Below are positions 9,780 through 43,294 of a DNA stretch of 64,000 bases, in pieces. Within the stretch, counting starts at the first letter, position 1. Each line of letters begins with the position of its first letter. A program made the translations under genes and the position numbers. The notes under the pieces are model-generated. The model had not been told where the DNA came from and searched no databases. It saw only the letters and a list, made by a program, of their open reading frames with translations. This DNA comes from Candidatus Magasanikiibacteriota bacterium (lineage in GTDB: Bacteria > Patescibacteriota > Patescibacteriia > Magasanikbacterales > GWA2-37-8), in NCBI GenBank assembly GCA_041665405.1, contig JBAYIZ010000001.1, positions 90,618 to 154,617 of the forward strand, in the 5' to 3' direction.

Positions 9780-11216
9780 ATGGAGCCGATTACTTTTTCA
9801 TCCACTTTTGGCTTTTCGATCAATTGGGAGTTTTGGTCTTGGATGTTTTCTCAGCCACCTGCCGATTTGATTGCATATTTGTTCGCCATTATTGGTTGGG
9901 TAATTTTGGTTTTGATTTGTGTTAGTTTGGGGTCACAACTGTTGGCGCTTTATCGAGCAAAAAAAGCGGATGGTCAGTGGGAGTGGGTGTTGTTGGCCGT
10001 CGATGTACCGCCATTATTTATTCAATCACCAAAAGCCGTAGAGCAGATTTTTGCTCATCTTAGTGGGGCAAAAGTTAGTATTCGTTTGTCAGAAAAATAC
10101 TGGATTGGTAAACGACAGAAAAATTTTAGTTTTGAAATAATTTCTATTGAAGGTTATATACAGTTTTTAATTCGTACTGAAATAGCTTATCGCGATCTAG
10201 TAGAGGCGGCGGTTTACGCTCAGTATCCAGAGGCAGAAATTACCGAGGTGGAGGATTATGTGGATATGATTCCAGGATCTTACCCAAGTGCAACCCACCA
10301 TATGTTTGGAGTAGAATTCCAATTAGCTGATGTTGATGCTTATCCTATTCGTACTTATCCAAACTTTGAATATAAAATTAGTAAAGACGAAGTTTTTAGC
10401 GATCCAATGGCAGCGATTTTGGAAAATTTTTCACGTATTGGGCATGGCGAACATTTTTGGTTACAGATCATTATTGAACCAGTCGGTAATGATTGGAAAA
10501 CAAAAGGTATCCAGTTGGTAAAGGATATTATTGCCGGTCATATTGGTCATCATGGAAATTTCTGGGGTGATGTAGTAGCTATGATTGGGAATATTCCGCT
10601 GGCTATTATGAAGGAATTTTTTAAATATTTGAATGCCTCAGAACATGAAGAAGAGGAAGTTCACAAGGAAATGCCTGGCAAATTGACCGATGTATCTCCA
10701 GGTGGAAAAAGCACCATCGAGGCGATTGAGGACAAGATTGCCAAATTAGGTTTCAAAACCAAGATTCGCGCTTTGTATGTGGCGAGAAATGAAGTTTTTA
10801 ATCCTACCCGTTGTGTAGATGGTTTTATTGGTTCACTTAACCAATTTCATATTCAAAGTCGCAATGCAATTATCCCGCGTTTTATTACGCATACTCATTT
10901 TCTTTTTTACAACCACATGAGAGAGATCTGGGTACAAAATAAATTTTTTAAAGCTTTTGCCAAGAGAAAAATAAAAGTGGGTGGTACTCCTTATATTTTA
11001 AATATCGAAGAGCTGGCAACACTGTGGCATTTCCCATTACCGTTTGTGAAGACTCCGCTTGTACAAAAGGCTGGTGCCAAACGTGGCGAACCACCAATGA
11101 ACTTGCCGATAGAAGTGGAATCTGGACCGCTAAGACCAAAGGTGAGGCCGACTGGACAGGTTGGGGAGACTGTAGAGGTTCCGGAGCAGGAACCAGAGGA
11201 ATTGTTATATGGATAG
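9780..11216 (+). CDS. ATPase-less paralog of the N-terminal (membrane plus middle) domain of the T4SS coupling-protein-like gene at 21153-23714
   Basis: Alignable blocks with the 853-aa protein: AQYPEAEIT/AQYPHAEIT, DPMAAILENFSRI/DPLVAILNPLSKM, FWLQIIIEPVGNDWKTKGIQLVKDI/ALIQFIVRPATSHWRKQGVHMIRDI, ATLWHFP/AGLWHMP. It stops exactly where the Walker-A ATPase begins in the paralog. Confidence 0.75.
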   Translation: MEPITFSSTFGFSINWEFWSWMFSQPPADLIAYLFAIIGWVILVLICVSLGSQLLALYRAKKADGQWEWVLLAVDVPPLFIQSPKAVEQIFAHLSGAKVSIRLSEKYWIGKRQKNFSFEIISIEGYIQFLIRTEIAYRDLVEAAVYAQYPEAEITEVEDYVDMIPGSYPSATHHMFGVEFQLADVDAYPIRTYPNFEYKISKDEVFSDPMAAILENFSRIGHGEHFWLQIIIEPVGNDWKTKGIQLVKDIIAGHIGHHGNFWGDVVAMIGNIPLAIMKEFFKYLNASEHEEEEVHKEMPGKLTDVSPGGKSTIEAIEDKIAKLGFKTKIRALYVARNEVFNPTRCVDGFIGSLNQFHIQSRNAIIPRFITHTHFLFYNHMREIWVQNKFFKAFAKRKIKVGGTPYILNIEELATLWHFPLPFVKTPLVQKAGAKRGEPPMNLPIEVESGPLRPKVRPTGQVGETVEVPEQEPEELLYG

Positions 11217-11234
11217 AGAGGTGGAAAACAAAAA

Positions 11235-11335
11235 ACACCACCTACATAATGACTTTTTCGCTTTTTTCACCCGCGAGGGTGAAAGGATGAGCCTCGGGCT
11301 CATAACCCGCTCAAAAGTAATTATGTAGGTGGTGT
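11235..11335. repeat. Copy 1 of a ~62-nt GC-rich structured element (core 11253-11315) nested inside a 16-bp inverted repeat (ACACCACCTACATAAT / ATTATGTAGGTGGTGT)
   Basis: Core CTTTTTCGCTTTTTT-CACCC-GCGA-GGGTG-AAAGG-ATGAGCC-TCG-GGCTCAT-AACCCGCTCAAA is shared with 21043-21104. Hairpin 1 shows compensatory substitutions (CACCC/GGGTG versus TTGCCC/GGGCAA) around a GCGA tetraloop. Confidence 0.6.
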
Positions 11336-11373
11336 TTTTTTGTTTGTGTTTAGCGAAAATAGTGGGTGTGACA

Positions 11374-11402
11374 TTGACAAAAGAGGTGATTTGTGTTATA
11401 CT
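11374..11402 (+). promoter_or_regulatory. Sigma70-type promoter (TTGACA, 17-nt spacer, extended -10 TGTTATACT) driving the high-GC small ORF
   Basis: TTGACAaaagaggtgatttgtgtTATACT, followed by a structured ~140-nt leader (three hairpins) before the ATG at 11547. Confidence 0.5.
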
Positions 11403-11479
11403 GATTTGTTATTTGAAAATTTAATCAAATTTGACCGGTATCTAATTGTGTTGAGTAATCTCAATAGAATTTGGTACCG

Positions 11480-11960
11480 GTTTCGAGTGTCTTTCCCGCC
11501 GCATACTTTGCGGCCCATCCGGCGCTCATTGCGCCAGAGGTACGAGATGAGCCTGTTTTTCTTCTTCGCTCTGATGTCGATCGTCGCCAACGCTTTGACC
11601 TTCAAGGGGAAGAAATTCTCCTGGTGGGGGTTCGCGTTTGTCTTCGTGGGAGGGGCGCTCGCGGCTGTCGCGTTTTCGGAGAGCCGGGAACTGCCGATCC
11701 TCGACCACTCGTGGCAGGTCGCCGCCAGCTGGGCAGGCCTGTCCGGACTGATCGGACCGGTCGTTCAGGTGGCGTGGTTCTCCACGAACCCGCCCAAGTG
11801 CTCCGAGTGCGGGCGCAGCTGTTCCACCCACGAGAAGGTGGCGCGCATCTAGGTTTTTTGGACTTTTTCCTCCCCGAGTAAAATCGGGGGCAGTGTCGCA
11901 GACGGTCGAGCTAGTTTATTTAGCTCCCATCTGTGCCTGAAAAAAGTCCGCAATCCCTGA
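11480..11960. other. Compositionally anomalous high-GC cassette 1
   Basis: Abrupt shift from AT-rich host sequence to GC-rich sequence with GC-ending codons. Bounded by a host-like promoter at 11374 and the terminator at 11993. Confidence 0.6.
11547..11852 (+). CDS. Small (101 aa) membrane protein encoded by a GC-rich foreign-looking gene
   Basis: ATG at 11547 with an AGAGG Shine-Dalgarno 10 nt upstream. Product MSLFFFFALMSIVANALTFKGKKFSWWGFAFVFVGGALAAVAFSE... has 2-3 TM helices and a CSECGRSC tail. Codon usage is GC3-rich, unlike its neighbours. Confidence 0.6.
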   Translation: MSLFFFFALMSIVANALTFKGKKFSWWGFAFVFVGGALAAVAFSESRELPILDHSWQVAASWAGLSGLIGPVVQVAWFSTNPPKCSECGRSCSTHEKVARI

Positions 11961-11992
11961 GTGTCTAAAATATTTAGATATTGAGGAAAACA

Positions 11993-12022
11993 AAAAATCA
12001 CCATTTAATTGGTGATTTTTTG
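11993..12022. terminator. Bidirectional intrinsic terminator
   Basis: AAAAAATCACCA-TTTAAT-TGGTGATTTTTT, lying between the + strand cassette and the - strand gene ending at 12034. Confidence 0.65.
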
Positions 12023-12033
12023 TTTGTGTTTTT

Positions 12034-12555
12034 TTATTTTGTTTCTTGAACAATAGTTTTTGGTGATAGATTTTTTATCATTTCATATCCGCCTACCAGA
12101 CAAGTTACAAAAAAGATATTACCTAATAATTCATTTCGGAAAAAGGGAAGTGCCATATAATAACTTTGAACTAAGCCAGATAAATCGTGTGTGTACATTG
12201 TTCCAAAAGCCCAGACAGCTGTGTTGGTCAAAAGAAAGAAAACTACACTACCAGCGAATGTACTCAATGCAACATTGGTGAATTTAATATTATTGCGAAT
12301 TGCGCGTCCGATTAATACCACTAACAAGAAACCGATATACACCGAAGCCATAATATAAATACTATAAAATCCAATAAAGATGTCGCTGATAAACATTGCA
12401 ACTATTGGTAACCATAATGATTCTTTTTTTGTTAAATACAGTCCACCAAATAAAGCGATGGCACCAATAGCGGTAAAATTTGCTGGGTGCGGTACAAAAC
12501 GAGTAGCGATGGCTAGGATGATGAGAAGATAAGTGAGGACATTTTTGTTTATCAT
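12034..12555 (-). CDS. Small polytopic membrane protein (5-6 TM) resembling an ECF-transporter S-component. It could be a corrinoid- or vitamin-specific substrate-capture subunit.
   Basis: 173 aa, wholly hydrophobic helices, size and topology typical of ECF S components. It lies downstream on the same strand as the DUF4430 / transcobalamin-like genes. The functional assignment is inference. Confidence 0.4.
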   Translation of the reverse strand: MINKNVLTYLLIILAIATRFVPHPANFTAIGAIALFGGLYLTKKESLWLPIVAMFISDIFIGFYSIYIMASVYIGFLLVVLIGRAIRNNIKFTNVALSTFAGSVVFFLLTNTAVWAFGTMYTHDLSGLVQSYYMALPFFRNELLGNIFFVTCLVGGYEMIKNLSPKTIVQETK

Positions 12556-12573
12556 AGGTTATTATTTTTTAGT

Positions 12574-12635
12574 GTCATTCCCGTGAAAACGGGAATCAAT
12601 ATTAAATGCTGGATTCCCGTTTTCACGGGAATGAC
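12574..12635. promoter_or_regulatory. Leader/operator with two GNRA-type hairpins (TTCCCGT-GAAA-ACGGGAA and TTCCCGT-TTTC-ACGGGAA) whose outer 24-nt arms are mutually complementary
   Basis: GTCATTCCCGTGAAAACGGGAATC ... GATTCCCGTTTTCACGGGAATGAC. It lies between the -10 box at 12645-12650 and the start codon at 12555, so it is transcribed as the 5' leader of the membrane-protein gene. Confidence 0.55.
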
Positions 12636-12644
12636 GTGAACTAT

Positions 12645-12673
12645 ATTATACCATATTGCGCAGTAGTCTCAAA
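12645..12673 (-). promoter_or_regulatory. Sigma70-type promoter (minus strand) for the 12034-12555 gene
   Basis: On the minus strand: TTGAGA, 17-nt spacer, extended -10 TGGTATAAT. Confidence 0.5.
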
Positions 12674-14544
12674 CCTAGGTAAACACCTACCGCTAGAGCA
12701 CTTCCACCAGTTATTGCCAAGATTCTTTTGGCATGTTTTTTGGTGGGAGTATCCAAAGGTAAATCATCAATAATTTTATTTTCATTTTTAGTAGTTTCAG
12801 CTGAGTTCAAAGTAAACGTGGATGTTGGTATAGTTGTTTTTGGCTTTTTGGTTTCTGTTCTATTAGTCGTAGTCACTGGTTTGTTAGTTTTTGTATTTGT
12901 TATTTTTATTCCAGCAACTTGATTATTTATAGAAGAAATATTTACAGTAGTAGTTGCGACTGTTAATGTTGAAGTGGTAGCTAGAGTAGTGGTAGTGGTT
13001 AGAGTTGTTGTGGCGACTGTTGTAGTGACTATTAATGTACTTGTCACGTTTAAAGTGGTAGAGACTACTGAAGGTAAATTTGCCGAACCGCCGCCTTGGT
13101 TTTGATTATTATTGCTTTTTAATTGTGGTTCCAAAATTACCGGCCAATTTTTTCTCAACAAAGCTGGCACAGCATGTTTAGTAGCAAACCAATCAACACC
13201 ATCACTACTCCAAGCAGAGTTGTAGTGATCAGTACCATCTAGATTGGTAAGAATATACCAAGGATTTTTTCCAGCCGAATTAAACCAGTCACTTTGTGTT
13301 TTTCCTAAAGCGTTTATTCCCATTACCACCCAGCTGGTAGTGAGGGCATCAGAAGTGTTATTACACCAAGTGACATCATAACACCAACCACCATCGGAGA
13401 GTTGTGCACTTTTTAAATATTGTTCCGCTTTGGTAAAAATATTTTCATCAATATTTACCCCTTTATTTTGAACATATTTCAAGGCGTTAATAGCCGCCCC
13501 AGTAATATCTGAACTGGCCGCTCCCCAAGAAATAAAGGCGCCACTAGTCTGGTTTTGGTTGGCTGTAATTCCGTTTATGGTTGCTAAGACAGCTGGAGAG
13601 TCATTGCTTTCGTCGATCGCTTTCAAGGCAATTAGTCCAAAGACGTCATCATTTATTCCATCTTCTCCATAAGCGCCACTAACAACACACGTGTCATTGA
13701 TTTTATTTTTTAGATCAATAATTTTGGTATCAGTTTTGGATATGCCAGAAGCCAGAAGAGCTAAAATGTGGCGGGGATAACCGGCACATAAATTATTGTC
13801 AGAGGCGGAGGTAATAGTAAAGTTATGTATGTAATCTTTTAGGCTGGTAGTGCTATTTTTAATCGTATCAGAAAATATTCCTTTACTACCAAATGTCATT
13901 GCCGCCCAATCAGAGATTCCACTATCCAAAATCATTCCATCAGCACTTTGTTTTGATTTTAAGAAATTGACTAATTTGTTTACGCTATCGTTTATCTGAC
14001 TGTCAGTAATTAAAATGTTTGAATTGCCTCCACCACCACTGTTATCTCCACCAGAGTTGTCGCCAGAGTCATCAGTAGAAGTAGCTGTGGTAATAGTTGA
14101 TGTGGTCAAAGAAAAATCGCTATAATCTGTATCGTTGAATTCACGCACTTGAAAAAAATATTCAGTATTTGGTGTTAAATCAAAAAAGGTGGTACTAGTA
14201 TTGATAGTGCTAAAACTGGATGTAATAGTGGAACTTACTTCATATGAGGTGGCATCGATTATGTCGTTCCAAAATAGAGTAATAGTAGATGTCGTTGCTG
14301 AGATAGTCGTGATGTTTGGAGTGGAGGTGGTCTTTAGGATATTTTCAGTTGTTGTAGAAAAATCTGCAGCAGGTGGTGTTGTAGTGGATACAAGATCCAA
14401 GATAGTGGTAGTCGTAGAAGCAACAATGTCGTCAGTTATTGGTGTATCAAGAATTTCCGCATTAGCGCTACTAATGTTTCCAACTAGTATTACTATTGAA
14501 AAAAAAGTTAAAATTACTATTATTTTAAAATTTAGAGTGTTCAT
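12646..14544 (-). CDS. Cell-surface protein with signal peptide, fibronectin-III-like domain, prenyltransferase/terpene-cyclase-like alpha/alpha-toroid domain (QW motifs), Thr-rich stalk and a C-terminal TM anchor
   Basis: N-terminal signal peptide (MNTLNFKIIVILTFFSIVILVGNISSANA). FN3-like segment (TEYFFQVREFN). QxxDGGW-type motifs (KSAQLSDGGWCY, KQSADGMILDSG, QTSGAFISWG). Long T/S-rich low-complexity tract. C-terminal hydrophobic helix plus KR tail. Confidence 0.75.
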   Translation of the reverse strand: MNTLNFKIIVILTFFSIVILVGNISSANAEILDTPITDDIVASTTTTILDLVSTTTPPAADFSTTTENILKTTSTPNITTISATTSTITLFWNDIIDATSYEVSSTITSSFSTINTSTTFFDLTPNTEYFFQVREFNDTDYSDFSLTTSTITTATSTDDSGDNSGGDNSGGGGNSNILITDSQINDSVNKLVNFLKSKQSADGMILDSGISDWAAMTFGSKGIFSDTIKNSTTSLKDYIHNFTITSASDNNLCAGYPRHILALLASGISKTDTKIIDLKNKINDTCVVSGAYGEDGINDDVFGLIALKAIDESNDSPAVLATINGITANQNQTSGAFISWGAASSDITGAAINALKYVQNKGVNIDENIFTKAEQYLKSAQLSDGGWCYDVTWCNNTSDALTTSWVVMGINALGKTQSDWFNSAGKNPWYILTNLDGTDHYNSAWSSDGVDWFATKHAVPALLRKNWPVILEPQLKSNNNQNQGGGSANLPSVVSTTLNVTSTLIVTTTVATTTLTTTTTLATTSTLTVATTTVNISSINNQVAGIKITNTKTNKPVTTTNRTETKKPKTTIPTSTFTLNSAETTKNENKIIDDLPLDTPTKKHAKRILAITGGSALAVGVYLGLRLLRNMV

Positions 14545-15124
14545 ATTTCCAAGTTATTAAATCATTATTTTTTAAAATATATGAGGAAATGCCGATTTTG
14601 GCCGGTTGGCCGTTGATATAATAAATCCAGTATTCGCCAGTTTGGTTATTATTTTTTTGACCGTCAATTTCTTCTAAGAAATATCCAACACCTTTGTATT
14701 CTTTAAAAATTGCACTAATTTTTTTATCGGTAATTAATTTTTGCATAGCGTTGTAGCCAGTTGAATTTTCAGGAAGGTTCAGGGTGTATAGTTTGTCGAT
14801 TATTTTGATTGTGACATTGAGTGGATACTTGATTTCTTCTTTGTTAATAGTTTCGACAGTTGTGGTTGATTTGATTTCGTTTTCGACATTTGTTTTTTCA
14901 ATTTTTTCATTATCAAGCGGTTGGTTGGATTCAGTTACCAGTGTTTGGGCTGGTTGATTATCTGAGATAATAGTATTGGTAGTCACATCCGTCCAAGTGA
15001 TATTTTGTGGCGTTGGTTTAGGTGTCTCTATATTCGGTTTATCTGGTAATAGTAGATAGGCGCCAGTGGACAAGAACAAGAATGTAAGAATAAAGAATAG
15101 GCGGACAAGGTGTTTGTTTTGCAT
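14525..15124 (-). CDS. Secreted DUF4430-like (transcobalamin beta-domain-like) protein
   Basis: Signal/TM N-terminus. C-terminal ~80 aa (GEYWIYYINGQPAKIGISSYILKNNDLITWKY) match the DUF4430 pattern G..W.Y.VNG...G...L.DGD.I.W.Y. Overlaps the downstream gene by 20 nt, indicating an operon. Confidence 0.55.
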   Translation of the reverse strand: MQNKHLVRLFFILTFLFLSTGAYLLLPDKPNIETPKPTPQNITWTDVTTNTIISDNQPAQTLVTESNQPLDNEKIEKTNVENEIKSTTTVETINKEEIKYPLNVTIKIIDKLYTLNLPENSTGYNAMQKLITDKKISAIFKEYKGVGYFLEEIDGQKNNNQTGEYWIYYINGQPAKIGISSYILKNNDLITWKYEHSKF

Positions 15125-15325
15125 AAATTATTTTGGAGTTAAAAAAAATCCTTCCCGAGACGAAAAGATTCTAAAAGAGAAGATTCCTGCTCGGGATGGC
15201 TGTTATTTGAAGACCGGACTTGTTCCCGATTGAATCGGGACTTTACCGTTGCGGCACAGTGGAGGAATTGACCTCACTTCCACAAATAACACGTAAATTG
15301 TCTTGTTAGTACACTATCAGCCTTA
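15125..15325 (-). promoter_or_regulatory. Structured ~200-nt 5' leader, candidate cobalamin-riboswitch-like element, upstream of the DUF4430 gene
   Basis: Minus-strand RNA contains GGAAGUGAGGUCAAUUCCUCCACUGUGCCGCAACGG..., resembling the cobalamin-riboswitch core (GGGAAG..GGUGAGAAUCC..CCACUGUG). Followed by a UCCCGA-UUCAA-UCGGGA hairpin and CCCGAG...CUCGGG plus a U8 run just before the start codon. Not all canonical stems or the B12 box were convincingly found. Confidence 0.35.
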
Positions 15326-16042
15326 TCAAACTTTGTCAAAACGAGTTGTGCACAGTCGAAAAATCGTGATAAAAAATTCGACAATATCTTTGTTGGATAA
15401 TTTGGATAGTCCCATTGCGCGATCCTTGAAAGTTACTGGTATTTCTTTAATTTGGAATTTATTTTTTTGTGTGCGATACAACATTTCTTCTTGAAATGCA
15501 TAACCATTACTTTTGACATTGTCCAAATTTATTTTTTCCAATACTTCGCGTCGGTAACAACGAAAACCGGCAGTAACGTCTTTGACTTTCAAACGTAAAA
15601 TTATTCGAGCAACCACCATCGCTCCCTGACTCATCAATTTTCTTTTAAAATTCCAACCAATAATTTTTCCACCATTTATTTTTCTCGAACCGATGGCTAG
15701 ATGAAAGCCGTTGGCACAAGTTTCGATTAAGCGCGGTATATCTTTTGGATCATGAGAAAAATCAGCATCCATTTCCAATATAAACTCGGCGCCTAGGGCT
15801 AAGGCTTTTTTGAATCCCGCTATATAGGCGCTACCAAGTCCTAATTTGTTGTAGCGTTTGATTAGGTAAAGATTGGGGTAGGATTTCTGAGCTTCAGCTA
15901 CTAGTTCAGCAGTTTTATCAGGAGAATTGTCATCCACAACTATAATCTGCAAATTGTTTATTGATTGAGCAAAAATATCATTGATAAGGTTTACAATATT
16001 GTCCCGTTCATTATAAGTGGGTATGACGACAATAGTCTTCAT
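15326..16042 (-). CDS. Family 2 glycosyltransferase, polyprenol-phosphate mannose/glucose synthase-like (Dpm1-type)
   Basis: VVIPTYNERDNI, VVDDNSPDKT, EMDADFSHDP motifs, 238 aa. Confidence 0.85.
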   Translation of the reverse strand: MKTIVVIPTYNERDNIVNLINDIFAQSINNLQIIVVDDNSPDKTAELVAEAQKSYPNLYLIKRYNKLGLGSAYIAGFKKALALGAEFILEMDADFSHDPKDIPRLIETCANGFHLAIGSRKINGGKIIGWNFKRKLMSQGAMVVARIILRLKVKDVTAGFRCYRREVLEKINLDNVKSNGYAFQEEMLYRTQKNKFQIKEIPVTFKDRAMGLSKLSNKDIVEFFITIFRLCTTRFDKV

Positions 16043-17011: not shown

Positions 17012-18379
17012 TTATTTCCAGTTGAGGCCGTATCTCAGAGGACAGGTGGCAACATATTTGGTTCCTTTTGATTTGTCGGTATCGTCGGGTTTAAAAACAA
17101 AATTATAGTTTCTCTTTTTGAGTTCCTTACAAAGTTGTTTGATTTTCTTTGCAAATATTTCTTGAGGAATCAGACTAAAATTTGTCATGGATGAATCACT
17201 ATGGATATACTGTGCCCAATCTTCTGTTCCATTTGCATATTTTTTATAATATTCACTACCCAACCGTATTACGAGATGATGTATTCGAATCTCATCTGGT
17301 TCAAGATCCAGTATCAGATTGATTGTTTTGTCTAGAGAGGTAATATCGGTTTTTGGTAAATCCATAATCCAACTGGTTCTAACGCGTAAGCCGATGTCCT
17401 TTGTTTTTTTAACGACTTCAATAATCCTCTGGACGTTGGTATTTTTATTTACTTCGAGCAACACTGCATCATCACCAGATTCAATTCCATAATGTATCCA
17501 ACAAAAACCGGCTCGGCGCATTGTTTTTAGCATCTCATCATCGAAACATGAAATTGATCCTAAACAGCCAAGTGCTACACTAATTTTTCTATTTATAATT
17601 TCATTCGAAATCCCTATCATTCTTTTTTTGTCCACAATCGCATTATCGTCCAAGAAAAGTATTTTTTTAGCTTTACAAGTGCGGACCAGGTATTCAATCT
17701 CATCGACTACTGCCTTTGGATTTTTGCCTTTCCACATTTTCCAAAATCCAACTACATGGCAAAAATTGCACCTTTGACTACAACCTCGGCTAGAAAGAAT
17801 AGTTCGGACATCAATATAATCGGAGAGATCAATTAAACTCCTATCAGCGATAGGCGAAATATTCAAATCAAATTTTTCTTCACACAAGGTGGTTGAATAA
17901 ATATTCTTGCCACTCCAAAAGGAAATACCATTAATTGTTTTTAGTTTGTTCTGATCCCAATCACCTAGTTCTAACAATTTTTTCAAGGATATTTCCATCT
18001 CATGAGAAATGAGTATATCCACTGGTGTCTTTGGGAAAAGTAGCAGTTGTTTTTTATAAGTGGCAGTTTTGCCGCCAATTATTATTTTTGAGCCATGCTT
18101 CTTCAATAGGGATGAGATTTTTATGATATTTTTTTGTGCGAGATCAGTATGTAAGGGGATATGATAGTCATAAAGAATGACTGCTATGTCAAAATCTTTA
18201 TTCGCCAGATAATTATTCAATTTTTTTAGGTCCATTTGCTTCGCGTCCATGTCTATGATATTTACATTATGGCCTAATGATTTCGTATAGGTCGCCACAT
18301 TTAAAATATCTATCGGTTCTATGATTATCGCATGAGAAGTAAATGGTTTATTTGGGGGATTTACAAAAAGAATGTTCAT
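17012..18379 (-). CDS. B12-binding-domain radical SAM protein (class B radical SAM)
   Basis: N-terminal B12-binding-like Rossmann half and a CxxxCxxC cluster (SSRGCSQRCNFCHV). 455 aa. Confidence 0.75.
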   Translation of the reverse strand: MNILFVNPPNKPFTSHAIIIEPIDILNVATYTKSLGHNVNIIDMDAKQMDLKKLNNYLANKDFDIAVILYDYHIPLHTDLAQKNIIKISSLLKKHGSKIIIGGKTATYKKQLLLFPKTPVDILISHEMEISLKKLLELGDWDQNKLKTINGISFWSGKNIYSTTLCEEKFDLNISPIADRSLIDLSDYIDVRTILSSRGCSQRCNFCHVVGFWKMWKGKNPKAVVDEIEYLVRTCKAKKILFLDDNAIVDKKRMIGISNEIINRKISVALGCLGSISCFDDEMLKTMRRAGFCWIHYGIESGDDAVLLEVNKNTNVQRIIEVVKKTKDIGLRVRTSWIMDLPKTDITSLDKTINLILDLEPDEIRIHHLVIRLGSEYYKKYANGTEDWAQYIHSDSSMTNFSLIPQEIFAKKIKQLCKELKKRNYNFVFKPDDTDKSKGTKYVATCPLRYGLNWK

Positions 18380-18516: not shown

Positions 18517-18587
18517 TTCCGAGACTTGGATTCGAACCAAGATAAGCAACTTCAGAGGCTGCTGTCCTACCATTAGACGATCTCGGA
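18517..18587 (-). tRNA. tRNA-Gln (anticodon CTG)
   Basis: Minus-strand cloverleaf: acceptor TCCGAGA/TCTCGGA, D-arm GTCT-AATGGTA-GGAC, anticodon arm GCAGC-CTCTGAA-GTTGC, T-arm CTTGG-TTCGAAT-CCAAG, discriminator A. CCA is not encoded. Confidence 0.85.
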
Positions 18588-40924: not shown

Positions 40925-41001
40925 TGGCGGGTCGGACGGGACTCGAACCCGCAACTTCTGCCGTGACAGGGCAGTGCTCTAACCAGTTGAACTACCGACC
41001 C
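40925..41001 (-). tRNA. tRNA-Asp (anticodon GTC), CCA encoded
   Basis: Minus strand GGGTCGG-TA-GTTC-AACTGGTTA-GAGC-A-CTGCC-CTGTCAC-GGCAG-AAGTT-GCGGG-TTCGAGT-CCCGT-CCGACCC-G-CCA. A terminator hairpin lies at 40878-40908. Confidence 0.9.
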
Positions 41002-42857: not shown

Positions 42858-42890
42858 AAGCTAATAAATTTGTCTGATAAAACAGACAAT

Positions 42891-43294
42891 GTGGAGGTGG
42901 CGAGAGTTGAACTCGCGTCCAGATAATTTTGAATATACCTTCTACATGCTTAGTCCACTTAGGATTTAACTATAGAGATAATAGGTGAACGAAACTCTCT
43001 ATGAGCGAGCCAGATTTACTTTCGGAATAAAGCATCTGACAATACCTTAAACCTACATCTCGTAAGTGACACCGTGTTGCGCTACGAAATCTCACGCAGG
43101 CGATGGGAAGCAACTATTAAGCTGCTACCGGAGCAAAATTGCAACAACCTTCGCCGATGAAGGCGTTGGTGAAAGCAATTTTAGCTTTTGAAAATAAGTT
43201 TGCACTTATAATTTGTTTTAGGGATTTATGAGGGCTAAAACATCCTCAGCATGCGAGTGTACGCAGAAACTTCTGTCAAAAGCACGGCACCCCC
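42891..43294 (-). ncRNA. ssrA: tmRNA (SsrA), ~400 nt
   Basis: 5' end GGGGGUGCCGUGC..., 3' tRNA-like end GGACGCGAGUUCAACUCUCGCCACCUCCA (T-arm plus acceptor). Internal tag reading frame ending ...NFAPVAA-stop. Lies 3 nt after the smpB stop. Confidence 0.8.

Follow-up and report, generated by a model that had tools for sequence, protein, structure and literature searches.

A stretch of minus-strand DNA in the 64-kb window analysed here (64,000 nucleotides of contig JBAYIZ010000001.1 from a member of Candidatus Magasanikbacteria, with 40.6% G+C over the whole window) contains three consecutive genes preceded by a cobalamin riboswitch. Gene 1 (14525-15124) encodes a 199-residue protein with a DUF4430/SLBB domain, gene 2 (12646-14544) a 632-residue surface protein built around an alpha/alpha toroid, and gene 3 (12034-12555) a 173-residue membrane protein of the DUF6580 family. 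All three open reading frames (ORFs) had been listed as co-directional in a preliminary description of the window, and they are present at these positions on the minus strand. Genes 1 and 2 share 20 nt, a gap of 90 nt separates gene 2 from gene 3, and a spacer of 201 nt lies between the stop codon of a glycosyltransferase gene (15326) and the ATG of gene 1 (15124). The best protein matches come from metagenome-assembled genomes (MAGs) of Candidatus Magasanikbacteria, including a 100% identical copy of the 199-residue protein. The locus was compared with 80 species-level loci from other genomes, each encoding a relative of the 173-residue DUF6580 protein, whose local context was scanned within 6 kb. 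Very probably, the locus is an operon for the capture and import of corrinoids, controlled by a cobalamin riboswitch, in a lineage of the Patescibacteria (candidate phyla radiation, CPR).

Nearly the whole of the spacer ahead of gene 1 is taken up by a match to Rfam RF01482, the adenosylcobalamin (AdoCbl) type of cobalamin riboswitch (clan CL00101), which occupies 15141-15306 on the minus strand and covers model positions 1-149; the core aptamer, from P1 to P1, lies at 15293-15197. The Infernal scan of the leader that the preliminary description had proposed returned this match end to end in a 601-nt search (44.7 bits, E=5.7e-7), but below the gathering score of 50, and the leader is absent from a gathering-threshold scan of the whole window for that reason. 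Among the first 13 loci scanned, 3 carry an RF01482 match that attains the gathering score, some 3.5 kb ahead of the DUF6580 gene, and orthologous leaders score 54.5 (L005), 54.5 (L011) and 50.0 bits (L006). A first family covariance model built from four leaders yielded 38 matches, and a second model, R2, was built from those 38 leader sequences. In their alignment, standard pairs make up 95% of base-pair cells compared with 67.7% in shuffles, and compensatory double changes are found at 21 of the 26 aptamer pairs. The covariation score is 0.602, against 0.147 in shuffles and at most 0.141 when the pairing partners are slid by 1-3 columns; fitting the alignment to the model favours the structure, yet the margin is large. 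R2 scores the window leader at 99 bits and detects the element in 50 of the 80 loci; in every case the element precedes the cluster's first gene and lies on the coding strand. Because the orthologous leaders and the covariation back it, the sub-threshold match in the window is accepted as a riboswitch. The riboswitch-like leader with cobalamin-core elements noted earlier is, on this comparative sequence evidence, a real cobalamin riboswitch, with cobalamin as its predicted ligand.

The 3' part of the leader has the layout of an expression platform (15141-15199, minus strand), in which a hairpin at 15199-15150 (-18.3 kcal/mol) is followed by an A and a U8 run at 15148-15141. Hairpin and U-run together are probably an intrinsic terminator. 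Both had been noticed before and both are real, but the U-tract stops 16 nt short of the gene 1 start codon rather than abutting it. The layout, with a conserved 5' arm CCCGAGCAGGAA, its complement and a U-run, recurs in most of the 19 leaders that were folded. By analogy with other B12 uptake operons, the riboswitch is inferred to act as an OFF switch. A mini-hairpin, UCC-CGAGCA-GGA, sits directly 3' of P1 (15185-15196, minus strand) and is conserved in a subgroup of these riboswitches. Of 51 riboswitch matches, 37 have its hexamer CGAGCA no more than 100 nt downstream of the aptamer, where 0.02 would be expected by chance. The three flanking pairs are retained in 37, 37 and 32 of these 37, with changes from CC/GG to UU/AA, and the 3-bp stem occurs as UCC/GGA, CUU/AAG, ACC/GGU and CCC/GGG around an invariant 6-nt loop. 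As the mini-hairpin overlaps the 5' arm of the terminator, the two structures are mutually exclusive. The mini-hairpin may be an antiterminator, a docking element or part of a riboswitch subclass; no partner complementary to the CGAGCA loop was found in the aptamer. An L5-L13 kissing loop with the expression platform (GAAU/AUUC) was also considered, and no claim is made for it, the complementarity being without convincing covariation across relatives.

Upstream of the leader, a possible sigma-70-type promoter (15311-15339, minus strand) was read off the sequence, with TTGACA at 15339-15334, a 17-nt spacer and an extended -10 element TGaTAGTGT at 15319-15311. Transcription from this candidate would start at about 15304-15306, the 5' end of the riboswitch match, and the promoter itself ends 5-7 nt before the match. 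A consensus scan missed it because its -10 element fits just 3 of 6 positions. At the other end of the cluster, a palindromic hairpin with T-runs on both sides lies just past the DUF6580 stop codon (11988-12025, strand unassigned) and is probably a bidirectional terminator that ends the operon.

The 199-residue product of gene 1 consists of a membrane anchor formed by a hydrophobic N-terminal segment (residues ~6-28), a low-complexity linker and a transcobalamin-beta-like domain (~100-199). Its similarity to the beta-domain of eukaryotic cobalamin carriers, already pointed out in the preliminary description, is borne out at two levels. PF14478 (DUF4430) matches residues 122-195 with 61 bits against a cut-off of 23.8 (E=1.6e-16). 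In addition, a profile of 41 relatives (A3) searched against the whole PDB finds intrinsic factor (E=0.004) and transcobalamin-1 (haptocorrin; E=0.006) over their beta-domains, with a weak and unrelated hit (E=0.45) as the sole further match. A bacterial parallel is the energy-coupling factor (ECF) transporter ECF-CbrT, whose B12-specific S-component CbrT is encoded in Lactobacillus delbrueckii in the order nrdJ-cbrS-cbrT-pduO (Santos et al. 2018, PMC5997447; PDB 6FNP). On annotated plasmids, CbrT homologues always stand behind a gene for a 'DUF4430 domain-containing protein' (e.g. in L. plantarum, L. intestinalis, B. mycoides and E. gilvus), and CbrS is for this reason evidently a DUF4430 protein. 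Alignment of the window DUF4430 family with the L. plantarum DUF4430 protein beside CbrT gives an hhalign probability of 96.4%, so that the window protein is, as judged by sequence, the counterpart of firmicute CbrS. No published corrinoid-binding study of a bacterial DUF4430 member was found in the literature searched. The idea that Bacteroides BtuH is a DUF4430 protein found no support in the papers that mention DUF4430, and was dropped.

The 632-residue product of gene 2 comprises a signal peptide (1-29), a Thr/Ser-rich linker, an FN3-like domain (77-147) that scores just under the Pfam cut-off, a single toroid (~176-470), a Thr-rich stalk and a probable C-terminal anchor (~608-628), and Thr and Ser account for about 40% of its linkers. 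PF13243 (SQHop_cyclase_C) matches residues 306-419 with 29.4 bits (cut-off 26.1). For residues 170-490, AlphaFold2 gave a model with a predicted local distance difference test score (pLDDT) of 93.7 and a predicted template-modelling score (pTM) of 0.91, and all Foldseek matches of this model are alpha/alpha toroids. The top matches are squalene-hopene cyclases, with template-modelling (TM) scores of up to 0.67, and unsaturated glucuronyl hydrolases reach 0.59. Bovine transcobalamin (2bb6_A) ranks eighth (TM 0.59, E=1.5e-4), and transcobalamin chains make up 11 of the 33 matches with E below 0.001. A sequence search of the PDB with the toroid protein returned no cobalamin carrier. The preliminary description had seen here a surface toroid with QW motifs and the fold of the transcobalamin alpha-domain; the toroid and its resemblance to transcobalamin stand, but the protein has one QW-like motif (QLSDGGW), and cyclases outscore transcobalamin. 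A terpene-cyclase function of the toroid was considered and rejected, given that the protein has no D.DD/DxDD cyclase motif, is a single extracellular toroid with a signal peptide, and scores 22-25 bits with NCBIfam cyclase models whose cut-offs are 323-851. As a separate observation, the toroid weakly matches the NCBIfam model 'SCO2321 family membrane protein'.

Since its fold alone does not single out transcobalamin, the connection of the toroid to B12 rests on fusions and gene context. In all eight of the PF14478-carrying toroid homologues that were checked, toroid and DUF4430 are fused in one chain with DUF4430 at the N-terminus, which is the gene order found here, and one further locus (L082) has a toroid-DUF4430 fusion in the order of transcobalamin. 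A tblastn search of plasmids with the toroid domain gave one weak match, on a plasmid of Streptomyces sp. NBC_01237, where a toroid-like ORF (L090, 4692-6317; 27.7% identity to the window toroid domain) immediately follows a fragment of an RF00174 cobalamin riboswitch (35.3 bits).

The 173-residue product of gene 3 has six helices and belongs to Pfam PF20221, DUF6580 (E=1.4e-49), a family that is not mentioned in the literature searched and whose members are labelled 'DUF6580 family putative transport protein' by NCBI. A profile search of 1.84 billion representative proteins found at least 6,010 DUF6580 clusters, counted at 50% identity (E<=0.001). Pfam assigns the window protein to DUF6580 alone, whereas CbrT itself is PF12822. 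When a DUF6580 profile of 39 relatives was searched against the PDB, the only sequence match was 6fnp_A (E=0.055), which is CbrT, because 6FNP is ECF-CbrT (PMC5997447) and its chain A matches PF12822. Alignment of DUF6580 with six aligned CbrT homologues gives an hhalign probability of 54.6% (E=1.2e-4). In this alignment, invariant residues of DUF6580 pair with invariant residues of CbrT (R19 with R25, N26 with N33, D58 with N65, G62 with G69), a suggestive hint of kinship at the sequence level, not proof. One member of the DUF6580 family matches ECF-ribofla_trS (E=0.003).

Structural comparison points to the same fold. With the AlphaFold2 model of the 173-residue protein (pLDDT 88.3), the only matches with TM above 0.5 are BtuM with hydroxycobalamin (8ovv, 0.69, root-mean-square deviation 3.7 Å), the FolT-type protein 4huq_S (0.61), RibU (0.61) and ThiT (0.56-0.57); the Foldseek E-values of these S-component matches are weak (0.09-3). 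To call DUF6580 an 'ECF S-component' is, on this modelling, a statement about the fold and not membership of a recognised S-component family. The resemblance of a ~170-residue protein with five or six membrane helices to an ECF substrate-capture subunit, claimed in the preliminary description, is upheld for the six-helix fold, but the family is DUF6580 and the similarity to CbrT is borderline. The protein is probably a corrinoid translocator with an S-component fold. Thirteen residues are conserved in at least 95% of 147 diverse DUF6580 sequences (R19, H23, N26, D58, G62, Y73, F106, N111, W115, Y121, G127, P137 and F138). No cysteine is found among the columns conserved in at least 80% of this set, and the sole cysteine of the window protein is C152 in the last helix. 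A 372-residue relative (P0320) has DUF6580 behind an N-terminal segment of 200 residues whose DGG and W-rich motifs recall the C-terminal end of toroid proteins; its sequence would fit either a toroid-DUF6580 fusion or a gene-calling run-through.

The association of these genes is seen well beyond the window. The order DUF4430-toroid-DUF6580 is found in 35 of the 80 loci, and in 33 others DUF6580 directly follows DUF4430 with no toroid gene. DUF6580 thus stands behind a DUF4430 gene in 68 loci; of the remainder, 3 are cut at a contig end and 9 have no upstream DUF4430 gene, 2 of these with one downstream. The conserved core of the system is DUF4430 and DUF6580; the toroid is an extra component, characteristic of Magasanikbacteria and related lineages. 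In one natural fusion (P0333), a single chain holds DUF6580, one extra transmembrane helix and DUF4430, an arrangement that would suit a DUF6580 with its C-terminus in the cytoplasm and an SLBB domain outside. The fusions, as far as sequence can tell, support physical cooperation of the proteins of the cluster.

Genes connected with B12 recur on the same strand around the 80 loci. The class II ribonucleotide reductase gene nrdJ (TIGR02504, 575 bits) lies upstream on the same strand in 11 loci, a CobA-type corrinoid adenosyltransferase is encoded in 8, NrdR in 6 on the same strand, and B12-binding radical SAM enzymes are encoded within 6 kb of DUF6580 in 6. Cobinamide-salvage genes are not among the recurrent neighbours. 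In an Ignavibacteriota MAG (L072, 3617-10058), an RF00174 riboswitch (93.6 bits), a TonB-dependent receptor, DUF6580 and metH follow one another in this order; the receptor is broken into at least three ORFs, either by a sequencing frameshift or because it is a pseudogene. In the window itself, the B12-binding radical SAM gene announced in the preliminary description is present at 17012-18379 (minus strand), about 2 kb from the operon and outside it. Its product matches Radical_SAM with 64 bits, its B12-binding domain match (24.2 bits) is under the cut-off of 32.1, and among NCBIfam models a BchE-like one fits best, at 139.6 bits, which falls short of its equivalog cut-off. The enzyme is likely a consumer of the imported cofactor.

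Whether DUF6580 works with an ECF module bears on how such a cofactor would cross the membrane. No ORF with both a Walker A and an ATP-binding cassette (ABC) signature motif was found in the window. Five ABC-like ORFs with Walker A and signature motifs are scattered within 6 kb among the 80 loci, and none of them adjoins the cluster. In helix 1 of other S-components (ThiT etc.), a small-xxx-small (AxxxA) motif contacts EcfT. In the alignment of CbrT homologues, the motif appears as [AGS]xxx[AS], placed 10 and 6 positions before the invariant Arg. In DUF6580, the small-xxx-small motif of helix 1 is not conserved, and the columns are mostly I, L, V or A. The lack of local ECF genes and the missing conservation of this motif lean towards DUF6580 as a solitary transporter of the BtuM kind. 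Shared ECF modules are often encoded elsewhere in the genome, however, and DUF6580 may act on its own in the manner of BtuM or, as CbrT does, through such a module.

The following sequence of events is proposed as a model. At high intracellular B12, the leader RNA would bind the cofactor and the hairpin and U8 run would terminate transcription before gene 1; at low B12, the three genes would be transcribed, a polarity adopted by analogy. The DUF4430/SLBB (beta-like) and toroid (alpha-like) proteins would be tethered on the outer face of the membrane by long flexible linkers and, as homology and the domain fusions of relatives suggest, would together clamp the corrinoid. This would then be passed to the six-helix DUF6580 protein, carried across the membrane, alone or with an ECF module, and supplied to enzymes that depend on B12, for example the radical SAM enzyme encoded 2 kb away. 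The corrinoid-scavenging role first put forward for the locus is well backed by comparative evidence, namely the riboswitch, the linkage to DUF4430, the B12-related neighbours and the fusions.

Several observations weigh against this reading. The mechanistic steps of regulation, binding and transport are inferences from homology, fusion and gene context. The window leader, at 44.7 bits, misses the RF01482 gathering score of 50. The OFF polarity is assumed and not derived, because the CGAGCA mini-hairpin competes with the terminator stem. A promoter-like site at the end of the toroid gene (12645-12672, minus strand; TTGAGA, 16 nt, TG-TATAAT, 11 of 12 matches) may be an internal promoter that would allow transcription of the DUF6580 gene independently of the riboswitch, although this is weak evidence because such sites are frequent in the AT-rich stretch (22 found, 15.2 expected). 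The Pfam scan of the 632-residue protein matched no eukaryotic cobalamin-binder family, just SQHop_cyclase_C and fn3, and terpene cyclases and glycoside hydrolases precede transcobalamin among the best fold matches of the toroid. The similarity between DUF6580 and CbrT is borderline (E=0.055; hhalign 54.6-62%, but 5.7% against a single CbrT sequence). Neither the window nor the surroundings adjoining any of the 80 loci contains an ECF A or T gene. Finally, the split transcobalamin-like/ECF system of Lactobacillus sakei has been reported to import heme (bioRxiv 10.1101/864751).

This last observation leads to the strongest of the alternatives, which is nonetheless unlikely, that the locus imports not complete cobalamin but a different tetrapyrrole, for example heme, or else a precursor of corrinoids or a fragment with the lower ligand (such as cobinamide or alpha-ribazole). 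The homologous split pair and ECF transporter of L. sakei are experimentally linked to heme uptake (10.1101/864751), CbrT also transports cobinamide (PMC5997447), and the ligand of the SLBB-toroid proteins was originally left as 'B12 or its precursors' (PMC1796856). However, a cobalamin riboswitch stands ahead of the operon in 50 of the 80 loci, and the products of the neighbouring genes nrdJ, cobA, metH and B12-binding radical SAM use or adenosylate complete corrinoids. Cobinamide-salvage genes are likewise missing among the recurrent neighbours; cobinamide may be co-transported.

More doubtful is the idea that DUF6580 is a membrane dock or a corrinoid-processing protein (e.g. for decyanation or ligand exchange), with another transporter responsible for import. 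A transporter role for DUF6580 is a prediction, its near-invariant H23 and D58 could be catalytic or cobalt-ligating, and BtuM, its best fold match, also chemically modifies its substrate (PMC6072759). Against this, the 80 loci offer no second recurrent transporter gene, only the scattered ABC-like ORFs; DUF6580 has the fold of S-components, which translocate their substrates; and in the Ignavibacteriota locus DUF6580 holds the place of the inner-membrane transporter behind the TonB-dependent receptor. Least probable is that the toroid is an extracellular enzyme or envelope protein of terpene-cyclase, prenyltransferase or glycoside-hydrolase type that is merely co-transcribed, which would leave a B12 role to DUF4430 and DUF6580: its best folds (squalene-hopene cyclases at TM 0.67, unsaturated glucuronyl hydrolases), its Pfam and NCBIfam matches to cyclase families and the 33 of 80 loci without a toroid gene, because of which the toroid is dispensable for the core system, speak for it, but the repeated toroid-DUF4430 fusions in both orders reproduce the transcobalamin architecture, the toroid gene always lies between riboswitch and DUF6580, DxDD is absent, the NCBIfam cyclase scores are about 25 bits against cut-offs above 320, and the distant Streptomyces toroid ORF also stands behind a cobalamin riboswitch.

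Corrinoid capture and import under riboswitch control remains the preferred reading. CPR/Patescibacteria have minimal biosynthetic capacity and their acquisition of cofactors is largely obscure; the locus and its relatives offer a concrete and testable system for obtaining B12, in which a riboswitch governs a small transporter and one or two binders at the surface, and give a probable function to two DUF families, DUF6580 and bacterial DUF4430/CbrS. Such a system could help to explain B12 dependence in groundwater and sediment communities. A bolder proposal, which we regard as possible and hold only tentatively, is that DUF6580 is a large, unstudied family of corrinoid transporters, found in many lineages of Patescibacteria, that are independent of ECF modules and are loaded by a membrane-tethered, split bacterial 'transcobalamin'. 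If true, the relay from DUF4430/toroid to DUF6580 would be the main B12 route for ultra-small, host- or community-dependent CPR bacteria, DUF6580 would join ECF-CbrT and BtuM as a third class of S-component-like B12 importer with a mechanism of its own, and the near-invariant His23 and Asp58, not a cysteine, would possibly hold the cofactor.

Other features of the window lie outside this system. Just downstream of the operon, an island at 11500-11900 has a G+C content of 59-65%, compared with 40.6% in the window and about 30% in the flanks, and carries overlapping Arg/Gly-rich ORFs on both strands, one of them a 170-residue ORF (11340-11852, plus strand) with no Pfam match. Beside it, a long palindromic hairpin (11221-11353) gives only weak matches to microRNA-precursor models, on both strands; no Rfam family matched island or hairpin at threshold. 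A predicted membrane protein of 478 residues is encoded at 9780-11216 (plus strand), also with no Pfam match; in 19 of the 80 loci a homologue of it lies shortly after DUF6580 on the opposite strand, an association that is probably lineage synteny and not a functional link. A transfer-messenger RNA gene (42889-43294, minus strand; 122.6 bits) and tRNA genes at 40928-41001 and 18517-18587 (both minus strand) were also found, one of the tRNA genes lying between the B12-binding radical SAM gene and the next gene.

The design of the system has clear precedents. Burroughs, Balaji, Iyer and Aravind (2007, PMC1796856) defined a transcobalamin-like SLBB clade, described bacterial SLBB-toroid fusions in either order, with signal peptides and in B12 auxotrophs, and predicted a role in B12 scavenging; SLBB and toroid genes were found in operons with CbiO- and CbiQ-like genes, and the clade was viewed as a Gram-positive innovation. 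Genes 1 and 2 fit that description, and they differ from it in their DUF6580 partner and in their Patescibacteria host. The split, surface-displayed transcobalamin analogue that the preliminary description called a notable uptake strategy is not new, since bacterial scavengers of this type were predicted in 2007 (PMC1796856), a split pair has been described in L. sakei (10.1101/864751), and firmicute CbrT genes stand behind a DUF4430 gene. The overall scheme had been foreseen in Gram-positive bacteria, so the present findings extend it and add functional annotation but introduce no new principle. What is new is the link of DUF6580 to B12, with the prospect that it works without an ECF module, and the spread of the system across the Patescibacteria; literature searches on Patescibacteria/CPR with cobalamin riboswitches or ECF transporters found nothing.

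In L. sakei, Lsa1836-1840 encode the ECF S, A and T components together with a split pair of beta (Lsa1839) and alpha (Lsa1840) proteins (bioRxiv 10.1101/864751). The likeness, drawn from description and not from sequence, lies in the separate beta-like and toroid genes that adjoin the gene for an S-component. In contrast to the L. sakei system, which has its own ATPase and T component and a link to heme, the window locus has no ECF module nearby, a DUF6580 membrane protein and control by a cobalamin riboswitch.

BtuM of Thiobacillus denitrificans is a solitary, S-component-like B12 transporter that needs the cobalt-ligating Cys80 in loop 3 (Rempel et al. 2018, PMC6072759). It is the best structural match of DUF6580 and, as here, no ECF module lies nearby; moreover, DUF6580 in the Gram-negative Ignavibacteriota genome occurs beside a TonB-dependent receptor behind a riboswitch, the context in which BtuM was predicted. 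However, Cys80 has no counterpart in DUF6580, sequence similarity is not detectable, and DUF6580 is paired with surface binders. Membership of DUF6580 in the BtuM family is ruled out by the lack of a conserved cysteine. The eukaryotic carriers transcobalamin, intrinsic factor and haptocorrin share with the window proteins the combination of a beta-domain (DUF4430) and an alpha6/alpha6 toroid. In the window these are two separate membrane-tethered chains, with the beta-then-alpha order found in most relatives; the toroid has no sequence-level match to the eukaryotic carriers, and delivery is predicted to be to a membrane transporter and not by receptor-mediated endocytosis.

The closest parallel is with ECF-CbrT and CbrS. 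Lactobacillales carry clusters of nrdJ, DUF4430, CbrT and adenosyltransferase genes, and in Brevibacillus genes for a small lipoprotein and a CbrT-like protein stand right behind an RF01482 riboswitch (116.7 bits). No cobalamin riboswitch at gathering score was found in the CbrT clusters of L. plantarum plasmid pLp900-2 (L084) or L. intestinalis. On pLp900-2, an azaaromatic yjdF riboswitch (1199-1295, 91.4 bits) adjoins a YjdF gene beside the nrdJ-cobA-DUF4430-CbrT cluster. In both systems a six-helix membrane protein comes right after DUF4430, often together with nrdJ and an adenosyltransferase gene. They differ in that CbrT belongs to PF12822 and the window protein to PF20221, with the helix-1 motif of CbrT not conserved in DUF6580, and in that CbrS is a protein or lipoprotein of ~130 residues, whereas the window DUF4430 protein has a transmembrane helix and a long linker. 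The window locus also adds a toroid subunit and has no ECF module in sight. It is best described as a Patescibacteria variant of riboswitch-controlled B12 uptake of the CbrS-CbrT type, to which a toroid has been added and in which DUF6580 replaces the canonical S-component.

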